Shown here piece after piece: positions 12,299-60,038 of a stretch of 64,000 nucleotides of DNA (the stretch's first letter is position 1; the number at the start of each line of letters is the position of its first letter). The notes under the pieces are model-generated. The model had not been told where the DNA came from, did not search any database, and was given only the letters and a program-made list of their open reading frames with translations. The DNA lies in the NCBI GenBank assembly GCA_963797095.1, contig CAWCNY010000006.1:288001-352000 (forward strand). The letters are read 5' to 3'. The translations under genes and the position numbers were made by a program. This stretch comes from an uncultured Chloroflexia bacterium (GTDB taxonomy: Bacteria; Chloroflexota; Chloroflexia; QHBQ01; JADMIH01).

Positions 12299-14714
12299 TC
12301 AAGACCACTGGGAGGCATTTTCTAAGGTGAGATTGCCTCCTTCTTGTGGGGTAGCTAGCCGACGGTAGACTGCCGCCGGTGTCTGATAGTCGAGGGCCTG
12401 GTGGGGCCGCTCATGGTTGTAGAATTCGATGTATTGGCCCAGGCTATGCCTTGCCTCTCTAGGAGTGCAGTATTCGTGCAGGTACACCTGTAGGCTAAGG
12501 GCCGTGCGCCTTGAGGTATTGCTATCTCAGGTTTCACTGCCCTCGCCTCCAAACCGGACGTACTCATTTCTGAGTATCTCGGCTTTCCCGTCCTTCGTTC
12601 CTTGGCTGGCAAGCCAAGTATTGCAAGTAGGATTTTCGGTTGTTGTGGCACTATGTGCCCCTCCTTTCCCCCTTGCAAGTGAAGGACCTGCGAGACTTCG
12701 CCTTGTACACGCCGTTAACGTGCGCCGAGAGTGGGCATTACTCCACTGACTACTACTCTCGCTCCGTAGCCTGGTGTAATATTCAGGTCCTGCAACCATA
12801 GCCTTGTGTCAGACTTGTATCTAACGCAGTGGCATTTACACTCGAGCTATCCCCGTTTAGTCTTAAACCAGATGCTTTCGATTTAGGTGGCTCGTTCAAA
12901 CCTTTATTCTCTTACTGAGACTGTGTTGGCCTAGAGGGTACATCCCATCATGAGGAGAAATGGGATGTTGGGCCAAAAGTGAGTGTCACCAGCCTTGCTG
13001 TCACCTGTCACCAGCCTGCTCACCCGGTTCAAGTTGCCCCACTCGGTTCTGAGCTTCAAGCAGTTTAGCCTTCACCATGTCGAAATTACTCTGAGAAACC
13101 CTCCGGTTGACTGGAACCATTGTTTTCCCTTACTGATGCCGTGCTATGTTCCCTCACGAGTTTTCACTCTTGAGGTAAGGCACTGAGTAGCTTCCTTTCC
13201 CTCAGGAAGCGAGATTGTTCGGAGCAATCTCACTGGCACTAAGACCCTTTACGGGCGCACCCTCATAGTTGATGGTTCTCCAAAGCCGCTCGGTGAAGAT
13301 GTTGTCCACGAACCGGCCCCTCCCATCCATGCTGATCCGCACGCCCGCCTCCTCCAACAGGCTGGTGTACTGCGGAGAGGTGAAGTGGCTTCCCTGGTCG
13401 GAGTTCCAGATATGGGGAGTCGCCCTGGAAAGAGCGGCACGAGTAGCTTCCATCACGAAGCTTTGCCCCATGTTCTGGCTCAGCTCCCAGCTAACGATGT
13501 AGTAGGCTAGGCCGCCAGCGAGTTGCCGTTGCCGACACTTTTCTGTCGGCCCGCCCCCGAACCCCGCATGCGCGTTGTCCACGCACGAGGCTCTCCAGTG
13601 TCATGATACGTGAACGTGAGTACCCTTTGTCCTGCCTGATGGCAGTCCTCTGCTACCACGTTCGCGTATGAGGTTGAGTACAGTTTCGGCGCTCTGCATT
13701 ACGCATACCTCTGTGTCTGTCTCCTCCCTGACACCTGTCACCCTTCCCCATGTAGACGGCTTTCCCGTCCGCAGAGTAGTATGGTGACTCCGTTACCATG
13801 GGGGTCTCCCCCTTTAGGCAATCCCATATTCCCTGGGTGTTAGACGTTCTAGCGTGACTTAGGTGCTTCGTTCGCTTCCTTTAGTAACCTCGTTGGCTAC
13901 CGCCCTCCAGTGGAAAGTTTCAGACGGCTCTCGATACTCCGCCCTGTACTGGAGGCTCTGCCATAAACAGTGTGTCAGAGGACGTGGCATTGCATCGCTG
14001 GAAACTGAAGTTCGGGCAATATTGCCTGAATGGGCAATAACAGTTTAGCTCTCACCATATCACGCGGGTCTTGCAGGGCCGTACGGTAACTGTTTTCCCG
14101 TACTCCCCACTTTATCGGCATGCTACTTTCCCCTTCAACTTTCGTATCCAGGTAGGCCGATTGACCCATAGGTCTCCTTTCCAACCTATCCCGCTTGCGG
14201 CGGGGATCTAACGTCCGGTTATATGGCGCACGCGGGAGTGCCAGTCCAACACCGCCACGAGGTAGAGCCAGCCTGGGTAGTCGCCCTTCATCCTGACGTA
14301 GGTCAAATCCACTCCCCAGACGTGGTTCGGGTACTGGGCCACCACTCCCCGGAGCAGATAGGGATATTTCGAATCGGACGCTCGTTTGCTACCTCTGCTC
14401 AGATGCGGACCCGGCACTATGGCCGAAAGACCCATCTCTCGCATATGCCTGATTACGGCTTTGCGGTTGACCGCATGACCCTCTTGCTGCAACTGCACGG
14501 TGATGCGCCGAGAGCCGTAGAAGGGGCGAGCTGTGTAGATTTCGTCTATGCGCCTCTTGAGGAGCACCTCCTCAGAAGAGGGAGGCACACTGTGGTAGTA
14601 CAAGCTGCTGCGGTTCAGCCCAAGCAGCTGGGTCTGAGCACGCATCGACAACCCCTGCACAGTGGTAACCGAAGGCTCCCGCTCCAGCAACGCTACTCGC
14701 TCCGCCCTACTCAT
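12299..14714 (-). CDS. IS3 transposase OrfB, three exons (14714-14232, 13501-13261, 12489-12299), 304 aa after splicing
   Basis: Junctions give DWHSR|YIVSWELS and TINYE(G|AG)VYLHEY; DDE motifs W.VDLTY, NSDQGSHF, DNIFTERLWRT, YNHERPHQAL. Confidence 0.9.
12490..13260 (-). mobile_element. group II intron (IIA-like), 771 nt, RT gene deleted
   Basis: 5' GTGCG; domain V GAAAGCCGAGATACTCAGAAATGAGTACGTCCGGTTTGGAGG; 3' end CCTAC; EBS1 loop (12950-12957) complementary to ligated exons ATGAGG|AG. Confidence 0.92.
13502..14231 (-). mobile_element. group II intron (IIA/ML-like), 730 nt, RT gene deleted
   Basis: 5' GTGCG; domain V GAGAGCCTCGTGCGTGGACAACGCGCATGCGGGGTTCGGGGG; 3' end CCTAC; 32-aa remnant ORF MQSAETVLNLIRERGSRGLP... 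Confidence 0.92.
13601..13699 (-). pseudogene. remnant of intron-encoded reverse transcriptase (ends fused by internal deletion)
   Basis: MQSAETVLNLIRERGSRGLP resembles the recalled N-terminus of ML-class intron RTs; no YADD motif present. Confidence 0.7.
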
Positions 14715-29422: not shown

Positions 29423-29932
29423 ATGAAGACAACACAACAGATAACAGAACAACAGGTGCGCGACGCCCTCATGGACGTAATGGACCCGGAGATCCCACAC
29501 CTCTCCATAGTAGACCTCGGCATAGTCCATAAAGTGGAAACAGGAGACACAGGGATTGCGGTAGATATCATGCCAACCTTCGTAGGCTGCCCCGCCCTTG
29601 AGATCATAAAAGACAGCGTGCGAGAGCGCCTGGAAACCCTCGCCCCCGACCACGACATTACCGTCAACGTCACAATGGAAGTGCCGTGGACCAGCGACCG
29701 CATCTCTGAGCGTGGGCGCGAAATCCTGAAAAGCTCAGGCTTCGCCCCGCCCCTCGCCCGCAAGCTGATGCCAGCCCGTGCCAACCTGATCCAGCTACTT
29801 CCCGTAGTCGAGTGCCCCTACTGCAACTCGCGCAACACAGTAATGGAAAACGCCTTCGGCCCCACCCTCTGCCGCGCCATCTACTACTGCCACAACTGCC
29901 GCCAGCCGTTCGAGCAATTCAAACAGGTCTGA
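29423..29932 (+). CDS. paaD: phenylacetyl-CoA epoxidase subunit D
   Basis: V.DPEIP.LSIVDLG, PTFVGCPA, WTSDRI, CPYC, FGPTLCRAIYYC..CRQPFE. Confidence 0.93.
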   Translation: MKTTQQITEQQVRDALMDVMDPEIPHLSIVDLGIVHKVETGDTGIAVDIMPTFVGCPALEIIKDSVRERLETLAPDHDITVNVTMEVPWTSDRISERGREILKSSGFAPPLARKLMPARANLIQLLPVVECPYCNSRNTVMENAFGPTLCRAIYYCHNCRQPFEQFKQV

Positions 29933-30006: not shown

Positions 30007-30669
30007 CTACTGTGGCTGAATAATCAGCGTCATACCATCAAAGTAGTTCCAGCGGAAGATGAATGAGTTCCACTCGGTATGGTAGAAGCCGCCATCGCCG
30101 ACATCCATCAAATAAACGCCATCGCTGTCGTACCCGTACAGCACAAGAGCATGCTCGTAGGGCACAAGCTTGAACGTCTGCCCATCGTACTCTTCCCAGT
30201 ACTCCGGACGCTCTTCATACTTGCCTGCGGTCAACCACACCACCGCCGGGTATCCCGCCCTGATATTCGCCTTGAGCCTCTCCACGTCCGTCCCGTAGAA
30301 CACCGTCGCCTTATATCCACGCTCCTCAAGCACAGACGCAAGTGGCTCGGCGTAGATGCCATAATCATCGATCCAACCGAACCCACCGTTGATATCACCT
30401 CTGAATCCGACGTGCGGGTTGGGGTTCTCGGGTATCTCCGCAATGAAATCTTTCTGCGAAACTAAATTGCCCCAGTAAAGTGTGACCGTAGCTGCGGCAG
30501 CATACTCGCAACTGAGGTTGTACCACTGAGTAACTGAAGGGATCCCGTCTATAACATATGCACCTTTTTGGGCCTCGGCTGTGGGTAACATCGCGAAGGC
30601 CGGCACTATAACGGATAGGAGGACTGAGCACGTTAAAAGAATACGCTTGCGGATTGATTTAGTATACAT
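30007..30669 (-). CDS. secreted C39-like peptidase
   Basis: Signal peptide; Q..NLSCE, NPHVGFRG, EHALVLYGYD. Confidence 0.8.
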   Translation of the reverse strand: MYTKSIRKRILLTCSVLLSVIVPAFAMLPTAEAQKGAYVIDGIPSVTQWYNLSCEYAAAATVTLYWGNLVSQKDFIAEIPENPNPHVGFRGDINGGFGWIDDYGIYAEPLASVLEERGYKATVFYGTDVERLKANIRAGYPAVVWLTAGKYEERPEYWEEYDGQTFKLVPYEHALVLYGYDSDGVYLMDVGDGGFYHTEWNSFIFRWNYFDGMTLIIQPQ

Positions 30670-30878
30670 TTCGTCTGCCCTCAACATAATATTGTGTGCT
30701 TACTGTCCTTTCTGCTTGGTGATCTTCTTCGCCCTTCTTAACATAATGCAAACAACATGCCAATAGAAGTACCGAAAAGTTAAGATTTGATGAGATTCAT
30801 CGCGGCTTGACGCACCTTTGCGCGGGTCCTTATAATAAGTTGGCGGAGCGTGACCCCTCTGCCCAGGCAAGCCATAAT

Positions 30879-31496
30879 ATGATCGATTTCTTTACATCCC
30901 CCCTCTTTCTGCTGTTTGCCCGCCTCTGTGTAGGCGGGGTATTCATTGTGTCCGGCGTTGGCAAGTGGCTCGATAAGCCTGGCACCGAGGCCAGCATGTC
31001 CCGCTACCTCTTCCTGCCCGGGGGTTCGGGCAAGTTCATCGCCACCGTCTTCCCCCCTCTTGAGATGGCAATCGGCCTGGCCCTCATCTTCGGCCTCCTC
31101 ACCCGCCTGGCCGCCCTCGGCGCTTGCCTCCTCCTCATTCTCTTCACCGGCCTCATAATCTACGACCTCTCGCGTGGCAAGACCCAATCATGCCACTGCT
31201 TCGGCAAGCTCTCCGACGACAAACTGACCCCGATGGCTGTGGTGCGCAATGTGGCGCTGATGCTCTTGTCCCTACTGGTGCTCTTCGCCTTTGACGGTTT
31301 CGCCTCGCTCGACCGCCTCATCGCGGGCAACACAAGCGGCCTCCTACTGGCAAACCTCCCGCCCACAGGCGACCCTGGTGCAAGCAATACAGTGCCGGTA
31401 GTAATCCTCTCCCTGGTGACCGTAATAGTGGTGGTATTCGGTGGCAAAGCGGTGTCAATGGTACGCAATACCCTGCGCGGTCTGGGCTTCCGCTAA
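30879..31496 (+). CDS. MauE/DoxX-family redox membrane protein
   Basis: ARL..GGVF..SG..K, P.LE..IG, CHCFG, RN. Confidence 0.85.
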   Translation: MIDFFTSPLFLLFARLCVGGVFIVSGVGKWLDKPGTEASMSRYLFLPGGSGKFIATVFPPLEMAIGLALIFGLLTRLAALGACLLLILFTGLIIYDLSRGKTQSCHCFGKLSDDKLTPMAVVRNVALMLLSLLVLFAFDGFASLDRLIAGNTSGLLLANLPPTGDPGASNTVPVVILSLVTVIVVVFGGKAVSMVRNTLRGLGFR

Positions 31497-31607
31497 TGAA
31501 GAAAGACGCAAGACGAACGACGTTGGCAATGCCAAGTTCCACACTCGCCGCTCGTCACTCGCCAATAATCTTTCGTCCACAAATACCAGAAAGGAGGTGG
31601 TGTAGAG

Positions 31608-32447
31608 GTGGCAAATACTATAACTGAGCCTGCTCAGGACGCTAATGCAGCCCGCATGCGCGCATGGGTGCTCGGGCTGGTGCTATCCGCTTTTCTCATG
31701 CTTATATGCGGCTTCGTCCTTGCGGCCTTCATCGACGGCCCGGCTCGGCTCTGGACCGGCCTGACCTACGTGGTCGCTATGGGCCTCGCCCTGGTGGTCG
31801 GCCTATCGAAGACCTCTTCTGCCTGAGGGCTAAACATGATCTTCGTGATCGTGCCCCTCGGGAAGGGGACCAGAGAAACTGTAAACTGGGTAATAAGGGT
31901 TATCTTCTACACCATCGGCTCGACCTTTGGTGCGGCGGCGCTCGCGCTTCTGCTCGGCCTGGTTGGTATGGGCCTAGGCGCGATCCTGCCCGACATCGGT
32001 TATGGCTGGGTAACTGCCCTCTTCGGTGGGCTGGCGCTAATCTGCGCCCTCAAAGAGCTAAACATCCTGCATCTGCCAACCCTCCAAATAGGCTGGCAGG
32101 TCCCTCAAAGCTGGATGCGTCCAAGTCGCACGCTGGGCAACACCCTCTACGGCATAGTGCTCGGCGCGGGCATCTTCACCTTCATCCCGTTCGCCAGCTT
32201 CTATCTCCTCCTCATGTGGGAGGTGGCGATGGGCGGTGCATCCCTGCAAGCTGCCGTCACGCTGGGCATCATCTACGGCTTCTTCAGGGGTCTGCCCGCC
32301 ATCGTTGGTGGCATCTCCGTCCTGCGGGGTCAGTACCCCCTACCCATCAGCGACTGGCTGATAGCTCACCTGGGCCTATGGCACGCCATCAACGGCTTAG
32401 TGCTCCTCTTCGTAAGCGGCCTCCTGCTGGGCTCCTTCGTCCTGTAG
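31608..32447 (+). CDS. probable selenoprotein: CcdA/DsbD-like or MauF-like membrane protein, Sec at UGA 31824-31826
   Basis: ORFs 31608-31826 and 31836-32447 share a frame separated only by TGA GGG CTA AAC; SSA-U-GLNM parallels the SP-C-GLSM motif; hairpin directly after UGA; WQVP..W and G..LG.G..T motifs. Confidence 0.72.
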
Positions 32448-32480
32448 ATGAGGGGTTATTATGGCCAATAACACAAACTG

Positions 32481-32521
32481 AATAAACAAGAATGGCGGCA
32501 CAGCCGCCATTCTTGTTTATT
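32481..32521. terminator. bidirectional terminator
   Basis: aataaacaagaatggcgg-cacag-ccgccattcttgtttatt between convergent genes. Confidence 0.75.
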
Positions 32522-32530
32522 CCATACCCT

Positions 32531-49877: not shown

Positions 49878-50112
49878 CCACCCAAGCCAAGTCCCGGAGG
49901 GACGGCAGAGAGTAGCCCAGGGCGTAAGCCCTGTGGTAAGCCAAGGACAATGCCATAGCCCCATAGGGGCGTAAGAACAAGCACTCCAGCGTTGCATCAT
50001 GCAATGCTAATGCTCTTACGTCCCTCCGGGACTACTTACTTGGGCGGTATGAACCGCAGGGCTTACGCCCTGGGCTACTTTCTTGCGTCCCTCCGGGACT
50101 TGGCTTGGGTGG
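49878..50112. repeat. REPIN-like inverted repeat pair (GTCCCTCCGGGAC and AGCCCAGGGCGTAAGCCCTG)
   Basis: About 49878-49936 is the near reverse complement of about 50056-50112; related motif near 39340-39363. Confidence 0.7.
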
Positions 50113-59786: not shown

Positions 59787-60035
59787 TTGAATTCGCCCGT
59801 TATAGTCTACAGCGGCAATCTTTGAGGCCCATGCCAGCATGTGAAGGAGTTTCTTTCACGCATTGGCATCCCTTTCGAGGATCGCAACATCAGCCTCGAC
59901 CGCCAGGCCAGGGACGAGTACATTGAAAAGGGCTACGACTTGCTGCCTGCTATCGAAGCAGGCAACACCGTGATCACCGAATATACGAGCGTTCCCCAGT
60001 TGATCGAGGTGCTGGCGAAAGAGGGTTATTTGTAG
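59787..60035 (+). CDS. glutaredoxin-like selenoprotein (UxxC), Sec at 59823-59825
   Basis: GGAGG, TTG start, MNSPVIVYSGNL-U-GPCQHVKEFLSRIGIPF..RNI; hairpin ATGCCAG...TTGGCAT after UGA. Confidence 0.85.
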
Positions 60036-60038
60036 CGA

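Follow-up and report, generated by a model that had tools for sequence, protein, structure and literature searches.

Does the in-frame UGA that divides two adjoining open reading frames (ORFs) of an uncultured Chloroflexia bacterium end one protein, or does it encode selenocysteine (Sec) within a longer one? The locus lies in a 64,000-nucleotide stretch of contig CAWCNY010000006.1 (assembly GCA_963797095.1, positions 288,001 to 352,000 of the forward strand), which we call the window and whose numbering we use for all coordinates given without another contig or locus name. A first-pass annotation of the window, made without database searches, had proposed a candidate membrane selenoprotein resembling CcdA or MauF and paired with MauE. 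Our computational analysis of the sequence indicates that positions 31608 to 32447 of the + strand are very probably a single, real selenoprotein gene, encoding a polytopic integral-membrane protein of 279 amino acids (aa).

One reading frame runs through the UGA

The two ORFs, 31608..31826 (72 aa, GTG start) and 31836..32447 (203 aa), share one frame in the ORF listing, and translation through the TGA at 31824-31826 (+ strand) gives 279 residues followed by a TAG stop, which bears out the join that had been proposed. Sec would then stand at codon 73 (U73) in the motif K-T-S-S-A-U-G-L-N-M. A GGAGG ribosome-binding site is seen in the sequence at 31593..31597 (+), 10 nucleotides (nt) 5' of GTG 31608, and the starts of the orthologues, which are mostly ATG, align with this codon. 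The start at 30879 that had been assigned to the candidate is instead that of the MauE gene upstream.

Alternatively, the UGA could be a true stop, and the locus could hold two coupled genes, one for a 72-aa two-helix peptide and one for a 203-aa protein translated from AUG 31836 via a GAGG. The first-pass annotation had noted that the second ORF has no clear ribosome-binding site, but we found that the UGA overlaps a GAGG located 7 nt before ATG 31836, and that TGA-GG is conserved in both of the phyla considered below. The supposed lack of a ribosome-binding site is therefore unusable as an argument, and a two-gene arrangement must be excluded on other grounds. Existing gene predictions also fit such an arrangement. 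Gene callers gave the 203-aa form in 95 of 95 matches, and a search of 1.84 billion representatives with a profile of our alignment A1 returned 2177 clusters at E <= 0.001 (618 at E <= 1e-10), among whose top 150 representatives 127 start at profile positions 72-82. Of these, 92 start exactly at position 77, which is the Met that lies four codons downstream of the UGA. The remaining top-150 representatives comprise 21 later fragments and 2 proteins that span the Sec column, both with Cys.

The UGA is conserved in two phyla

We searched 61 related genomes in six frames and found the protein in 37. Within the order, the match covers column 73 in 36 genomes, and all 36 have exactly one in-frame TGA (32/32 when the four unpublished genomes G016, G021, G022 and G033 are left out); the 37th match, in G044, covers residues 159-260 only. 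In 30 of 30 fetched loci of the order, the TGA occupies the identical column within G-x-(S/A)-K-T-S-S-A-U-G-(L/V)-N-M-I, and codon 73 is TGA in each of the 26 sequences from published genomes. Given that the identity of these homologues to the window protein drops to about 40%, the shared TGA does not reflect recent common descent of an error.

The same codon recurs in more distant lineages. Genome contigs scanned with a narrower alignment (A4) of a group beginning M-V-E-T-I returned 33 loci, all from Actinomycetota metagenome-assembled genomes and including Solirubrobacterales and Thermoleophilaceae. In each of the 32 loci with an N-terminus, TGA falls exactly four codons before Met, in the context ...S-T-L-F-S-P-U-G-L-S-M-V-E-T-I; the other locus, L082, is an internal match and stands outside this count. 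A sample of 401 Chloroflexota genomes held the family in 11, and its column-spanning matches carry TGA in six genomes and none in a further one, G172. Read directly, 5 further Chloroflexota loci all have TGA at the column, a count that leaves aside G283, an unpublished member of the six. UGA is thus kept in every spanning UGA-form homologue, with Cys in the rare others. The codon is TGA wherever it was seen, never TAA or TAG, which counts against its being an ordinary stop between two genes. So do the UGA forms L094 (U-G-L-P-Q-L-F) and L095 (U-G-F-N-A-A-T), for which a restart after the UGA is unavailable because no Met follows it.

Both sides of the UGA carry the marks of coding sequence. At codons 60-72, upstream of the UGA, residues are conserved while codon usage varies (mean entropy 1.40 bits), and we conclude from this that the upstream part is coding. 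The three codons between the TGA and the ATG change synonymously or conservatively only (G, then L or V, then N), a further point against two separate genes. A broken gene or an assembly error would account for the bare presence of a stop codon in a conserved frame and for nothing beyond it; with an identical TGA in every spanning homologue, across dozens of independent assemblies and two phyla, and with protein-level constraint on both halves, we regard that explanation as having a negligible chance of being right.

Cysteine forms and Sec machinery

If UGA encodes Sec, relatives with Cys in its place might be expected, and the first-pass annotation had proposed SP-C-GLSM for them. That motif was close. 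The continuous homologues P0108, P0124 and P0276 have Cys at the Sec column, P0276 within ...WSPCGFSM..., and the G172 sequence, read directly, has Cys there in A-K-T-A-T-A-C-G-L-N. No SelA was found in G172 (best match 18 bits; genome 96% complete), and SelA scored above its cut-off in all 10 UGA-form genomes tested (this one, 5 from Actinomycetota and 4 from Chloroflexota). The existence of continuous Cys forms, the testable one of which comes from a genome that gave no SelA, argues against a genuine stop at this position.

The genome that contains the window has the machinery that Sec insertion would need, each component above its cut-off: SelA at 566.7 bits (cut-off 268), SelB at 323.5 bits (cut-off 242), a Sec-type SelD with one internal TGA at 324.6 bits, and tRNA-Sec at 69.1 bits (gathering score 47). 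A second UGA and hairpin had been reported for a gene at 59787, and this gene held up on inspection. It is a glutaredoxin-like gene at 59787..60038 (+), outside the MauE unit, with a TTG start, an in-frame TGA at 59823-59825 within '...NL-U-GPC...' (U-G-P-C), and a hairpin of its own directly after the UGA (z -3.0). It matches the NrdH and YruB models at E values of about 1e-11 to 1e-10, short of the cut-off of either model. This gene supports the use of Sec by the organism.

A conserved stem-loop follows the UGA

Bacterial Sec insertion at this codon would be directed by a nearby RNA element, and a selenocysteine insertion sequence (SECIS)-like stem-loop spans 31815..31869 (+). The hairpin GGGC-TAAA-CATGATC-TTCGT-GATCGTG-CCC, which had been placed right after the UGA, is located at 31827-31856. 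Its core (31835-31853) has 7 base pairs and a UUCGU loop, begins 8 nt after the UGA and presents a G in the apical loop; a lower stem that includes the UGA pairs 31822-31829 with 31855-31862. Positions 31815-31900 (86 nt) fold at -31.6 kcal/mol, compared with -22.7 +/- 3.0 in shuffled sequences (z -2.9; 2/200 shuffles equal). In 25 distinct sequences, 90.3% of the stem-loop cells are paired, a share that drops to 42-56% after the partners are shifted by 1-3 columns. RNAalifold recovers the identical hairpin core, and the stem-loop contains one compensatory change, from C-G to U-A. The Rfam scan of the window gave no family at gathering score for the hairpin.

Selection on the RNA is also suggested by codon choice. 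Among the 26 published-genome sequences, mean codon entropy is 0.48 bits at 9 conserved codons within codons 74-86, versus 1.39 bits at 50 conserved codons elsewhere, a contrast for which a Mann-Whitney test gives p 2e-5, an approximate value because the sequences are kin. In the Actinomycetota genes another hairpin, GAUGGU-NNAG-ACCAUC, stands at an equal offset from the UGA, so that although the peptide differs between the branches (M-I-F-V-I-V versus M-V-E-T-I), a hairpin containing the AUG is retained.

This arrangement bears on the choice between one gene and two. The AUG from which the 203-aa protein would have to begin is buried in the 5' arm of the conserved hairpin, which should hinder a fresh start, and a stop at this UGA would strike the residue that aligns with the active Cys of CcdA, in the middle of a transmembrane helix. 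Set against the GAGG, the uniform 203-aa predictions and the clustering of database starts at Met77, these points, together with the Cys forms and the codon patterns above, leave a pair of coupled genes very improbable. The conserved UGA, the Cys forms, a SECIS-like hairpin under synonymous constraint and the presence of the Sec machinery instead uphold the claim of a membrane selenoprotein.

A probable divergent relative of CcdA

The shortened forms of family members in public databases are named 'hypothetical protein', 'cytochrome c-type biogenesis protein' or 'sulfite exporter TauE/SafE family protein'. The A1 profile reaches P0124 at E 2.1e-27, and P0124 in turn matches DsbD_2 (PF13386) at E 2.8e-8 over profile positions 2-170 (34.4 bits, cut-off 24.9) and DsbD_TM weakly (E 0.022). 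Three further relatives, P0249, P0265 and P0300, match DsbD_2 at 26-29 bits, above the same cut-off. Aligned by hhalign with the genome's own CcdA-like protein, the family-wide alignment A2 gave a probability of 74.5% (E 3.3e-6). U73 falls on the Cys of the CcdA motif S-P-C in both the A1 and the A2 alignments, and the Actinomycetota members, which read S-P-U, offer a direct counterpart. F195 falls on the Cys of CcdA T-P-C in the A2 alignment, a position held by Phe or Tyr in all 23 A1 rows.

The AlphaFold2 (AF2) model (mean predicted local distance difference test score, pLDDT, 83.5; predicted template modeling score 0.83) shows breaks in the helices that span 51-81 and 174-211, a pattern that a repeat such as the six-helix 3+3 inverted repeat of the superfamily would give. 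These results support placing the protein, by an indirect link, as a divergent branch of the DsbD_2/CcdA superfamily in which the first active-site position would be kept as Sec and the second lost. The earlier description of the protein as CcdA-like is thus sustained by the DsbD_2 matches of its relatives and by hhalign, and not by the window protein itself, which matches no Pfam model.

Four relatives (P0284, P0297, P0271 and P0293) continue after the membrane domain into a C-terminal extension of 250-280 aa, which may represent fused periplasmic client or partner domains; P0284, which bears such an extension, matched no Pfam family.

MauE is the constant neighbor

The gene directly upstream, 30879..31496 (+), encodes a 205-aa membrane protein of the MauE/DoxX family (Pfam MauE PF07291, E 2e-28) with the motif S-C-H-C-F-G, which is invariant in a 20-sequence alignment (A5). 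In all 24 same-genus loci, MauE lies immediately ahead of the selenoprotein gene (21/21 without unpublished genomes), and it is present in 5 of the 6 Actinomycetota loci scanned. In other lineages the two appear to be fused. Six proteins of about 375 aa start with M-V-E-T-I (M-A-Q-T-I in one) and each have a precomputed MauE domain, and we confirmed the fusion on one, P0278, in which this domain lies at the C-terminal end (E 6.1e-20); these fusions are known from protein records, and their upstream UGA is assumed. The proposed pairing with MauE was therefore well founded. The convergent DM13 protein, which had been suggested as a further partner, is a neighbor in only 2 of 24 same-genus loci, and we rejected it as part of the system.

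A sigma-70-like promoter identified by consensus match alone (TTGACG, 18 nt, TATAAT; 11/12 positions) lies at 30807..30836 (+), and a sequence scan placed a 20-bp palindromic, terminator-like hairpin, strand undefined, at 32480..32522 between the convergent genes. With a promoter-like site 5' of MauE and this palindrome 3' of the selenoprotein gene, the two genes fit a single unit.

Other same-genus neighbors (PaaD-like, C39-like peptidase, PyrF/E) vary. In the window, a C39-like peptidase with a signal anchor (30007-30687, - strand) and a PaaD-like protein with an Fe-S assembly domain and a zinc ribbon (29423-29932, + strand) lie by the MauE gene. Directly behind a second MauE gene, on contig C1 of the genome that contains the window, G000 (L087 3876-6428), come a redoxin gene, a 106-aa ORF and a gene for an S26 signal peptidase, with no DsbD_2-like selenoprotein adjoining.

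Sister lineages add a thioredoxin and exported Cys-rich proteins

In sister families of the order, the gene order runs from MauE through a MauD-like membrane-anchored thioredoxin and one or two Cys-rich proteins with twin-arginine translocation (TAT) signals to the selenoprotein. The best NCBIfam match of the MauD-like gene is TIGR02661, over its full length (E 7e-22; 77.8 bits versus a cut-off of 188.6). The TAT-signal proteins are about 150 aa long, and in one locus a Kelch propeller then follows. In Actinomycetota, MauE lies on the other strand, and a redoxin-like gene and a TAT Cys-rich protein of about 175 aa precede the selenoprotein. The Pfam scan of these loci found no metal-binding domain.

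The Cys-rich family and the selenoprotein also share a phyletic pattern across the 61 relatives searched. Each occurs in 36 of the 39 genomes of the order, and neither occurs in the 21 other genomes of the class, bar one weak partial match. This co-occurrence agrees with a link between the two, without being proof of one, in genomes that are kin. The TAT Cys-rich protein itself matched no Pfam family, its sole match among PDB sequences was a chance RNase T1 row (E 0.65), and its AF2 model was poor (pLDDT 57.3), with both fold searches uninformative.

In the window's own genome, G000, contig C2 carries Cys-rich/Kelch loci (L084 4273-8335; L085 3998-7995 and 11579-12031; L086 4125-6815 and 7166-10027) with five Cys-rich paralogues of about 150 aa that have a TAT signal and match no known family. 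Behind four of the five lies a gene for a large Kelch-propeller protein that has SLH domains. One paralogue is preceded by the MauD-like thioredoxin, and a DDE_5 transposase gene (L085 8037-9464) directly follows one Cys-rich/Kelch pair. These pairs resemble an enzyme family made of a small subunit plus a propeller. The Sec-containing selD (C2:243079-243930) has Cys-rich/Kelch clusters on either side, one at about 222 kb and the others at 254-262 kb, which may be coincidence.

A possible thiol relay

How might a single Sec function in such a membrane protein? We propose that UGA 31824-31826 would be recoded by SelB and tRNA-Sec under the direction of the stem-loop 8 nt downstream, placing Sec in the kinked first core transmembrane helix at the position of the first redox-active Cys of CcdA (S-P-C). 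Because this protein is unable to make an internal disulfide as CcdA does, we suggest that its selenol, lacking an internal partner, would exchange with the C-x-C pair of MauE. The selenoprotein and MauE could then pass reducing or oxidizing equivalents across the membrane to the MauD-like membrane-anchored thioredoxin, which in turn may act on the TAT-exported Cys-rich small proteins encoded beside Kelch-propeller wall proteins. Sec insertion itself is our inference, and from the protein family and the neighboring genes we further infer a redox role, which way the electrons would flow and which proteins the clients would be.

On balance we favor, while keeping real reservations, the view that the locus encodes a UGA-recoded membrane selenoprotein of the DsbD_2/CcdA type that works as a thiol relay with MauE. 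In a more ambitious version, this gene would be the first known member of a large family of integral-membrane selenoproteins, as yet without annotation, in soil Chloroflexota and Actinomycetota. A membrane-buried selenol, lacking its own resolving Cys, would there form a two-protein selenenylsulfide relay with MauE that matures an undescribed class of small TAT-exported Cys-rich subunits paired with wall-anchored Kelch propellers, a counterpart of the light and heavy chains of amine dehydrogenase. We offer that version tentatively and consider it rather doubtful as a whole.

Several results weigh against the favored view as a whole. At the level of the gene, covariation in the hairpin is thin, with most pairs invariant within the clade, and the conserved GAGG overlapping the UGA ahead of a conserved AUG is the layout of a translationally coupled pair. 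The public sequencing runs listed for this locus comprised 3 DNA runs from one soil study and no RNA run. At the level of the family, the read-through protein of the window matches no Pfam or NCBIfam model (NCBIfam at E <= 0.1), and a Pfam search with all 23 A1 members, extended to E 10, recovered no DsbD-type model for any of them, giving only 9 unrelated weak families. Searches of this genome with PF13386 and PF02683 miss the selenoprotein gene, a PDB sequence search with the A1 profile returned only a chance lipoyltransferase row (E 1.1), and the hhalign comparison of the narrower A1 with the CcdA-like protein was not significant (probability 0.6%, E 0.049).

The structural comparisons point the same way. 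Confidence in the AF2 model is lowest around Sec (pLDDT 61, residues 71-80), Foldseek found no match in PDB at E <= 0.001, and a wide VIA-align search gave no row at Z >= 8; CcdA was unlisted, which does not exclude CcdA. The CcdA mechanism is defined by a second Cys that this protein lacks, and none of its other Cys residues is conserved, so that any relay would need a putative partner thiol. Finally, the MauD-like gene and the five Cys-rich paralogues of the window genus lie on another contig, C2, so that their link to the selenoprotein rests on sister lineages and on co-occurrence among kin.

A metal-transporting alternative

In the main alternative, Sec would be not a redox residue but a soft-metal ligand in a transporter that moves or passes on a thiophilic metal such as Cu(I) across the membrane, perhaps loading galactose-oxidase-like Kelch-propeller wall proteins. 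The selenol and a Met one helical turn on (U-x-x-x-M) would then line the path. A single chalcogen residue without a resolving Cys suits this role, as does Met77, which is at least 90% conserved across the family alignment; however, Met77 is Ala or missing in P0108, G172, L094 and L095, and its conservation may stem in part from the RNA hairpin that contains the AUG. Some DsbD_2 members carry the public name of a transporter ('sulfite exporter TauE/SafE', P0265 and P0300), and the Kelch-propeller proteins with SLH domains that follow the Cys-rich genes in four of five paralogue loci would supply candidate clients.

The fold comparison lends this alternative some further encouragement. The best VIA-align rows, all below the level that the tool treats as meaningful for helical bundles, were RnfA (8ahx_A, Z 6.8, root-mean-square deviation [rmsd] 5.8, 151 aligned), NqrE (7xk3_E, Z 6.5, rmsd 5.0, 152 aligned) and RnfE (7zc6_E, Z 5.9, rmsd 5.5, 136 aligned). 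Membrane Cys residues of RnfA, NqrE and RnfE bind an iron-sulfur center. Yet the constant partners of the selenoprotein are thiol-disulfide proteins (MauE with C-x-C and the MauD-like protein with C-x-x-C) rather than metal chaperones or P-type ATPases, and the absence of metal-binding domains from the Pfam-scanned loci also speaks against metal transport. We therefore consider metal transport unlikely, and we retain the thiol relay with MauE as the preferred function.

Other features of the window

Elsewhere in the window, the - strand has two matches to RF00029, the catalytic domain of group II introns, about 1 kb apart (12490-12587 and 13502-13595; 43.7 bits each). Two divergent Acido-Lenti-1 RNA motifs (RF01687; about 50 bits each) lie 120 nt apart at 49890-49935 (-) and 50055-50100 (+).

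Comparison with known systems

Few bacterial selenoproteins are membrane-embedded, and we found no description of a selenoprotein family of this kind in the literature searched, although subscription journals and supplements may hold one. A 2026 review tabulates families of prokaryotic selenoproteins, giving 119 as their total, and its table in section 7 ties no family to DsbD_2/PF13386 or to MauE (PMC13188914). We conclude that the gene likely represents a new selenoprotein family, a single-Sec variant of the CcdA scaffold. If so, truncated selenoproteins would lie behind hundreds to thousands of roughly 200-aa database entries, and selenium use in soil Chloroflexota and Actinomycetota would be under-counted. 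It would also mean that one Sec plus a partner protein is enough for the CcdA scaffold to function, which would allow a concrete test of the role of MauE, and it would point to an uncharacterized secreted system of Cys-rich and Kelch-propeller proteins.

The nearest label in that table is TsoB, a 'rhodanese/DsbD fusion-like selenoprotein' (NF045694) with two Sec residues in U-x-x-x-x-U and a rhodanese part (PMC13188914). Both would be bacterial selenoproteins, and TsoB carries the DsbD-like label there (PMC13188914), but our protein would have one Sec and has no rhodanese domain and a different operon. Neither the window protein (NCBIfam at E <= 0.1) nor its relatives (E <= 1) matched NF045694. 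The same table lists NqrE (PF02508) and a MerT-like protein as selenoprotein families (PMC13188914). With NqrE, RnfA and RnfE of the Rnf-Nqr family (PF02508) our protein shares the character of a small polytopic membrane protein and its best, though weak, structural matches; unlike them, it has no sequence match to that family and no Nqr or Rnf genes nearby.

A second comparison is with the methylamine-utilization (mau) cluster. MauF is the DsbD-like membrane protein of this cluster, and we know of no report of Sec in MauF; what MauE does is, to our knowledge, still an open question. By context our genes resemble the mau set, with MauE, a MauD-like thioredoxin, a small TAT Cys-rich protein and then a beta-propeller. 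They differ from it in that the Cys-rich proteins match no Pfam family, the propeller is of the Kelch type and the MauD-like gene adjoins in sister lineages only. A search of the genome gave no light- or heavy-chain domain of methylamine dehydrogenase, a weak negative given that control genomes were negative too.

The closest relationship would be to CcdA, the DsbD transmembrane domain (PF02683) and DsbD_2 (PF13386), and the genome has two ordinary DsbD_TM genes elsewhere. Like these proteins, ours is polytopic, with a layout that may be a two-fold repeat, and, as in CcdA, a chalcogen residue would follow S-(P/A) in a first core helix that is kinked: the window protein has S-A-U and the Actinomycetota members have S-P-U, compared with S-P-C in the CcdA of this genome. 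A membrane-anchored thioredoxin-fold partner, as known for CcdA and DsbD, accompanies it in sister lineages. In contrast to CcdA and DsbD_2, the Chloroflexia branch has an extra N-terminal helix, and the window protein is too divergent for either Pfam model. Sec would replace Cys at the first active position while Phe or Tyr replaces the second active Cys (I-P-F versus T-P-C), leaving a CcdA-like scaffold with no internal redox pair.

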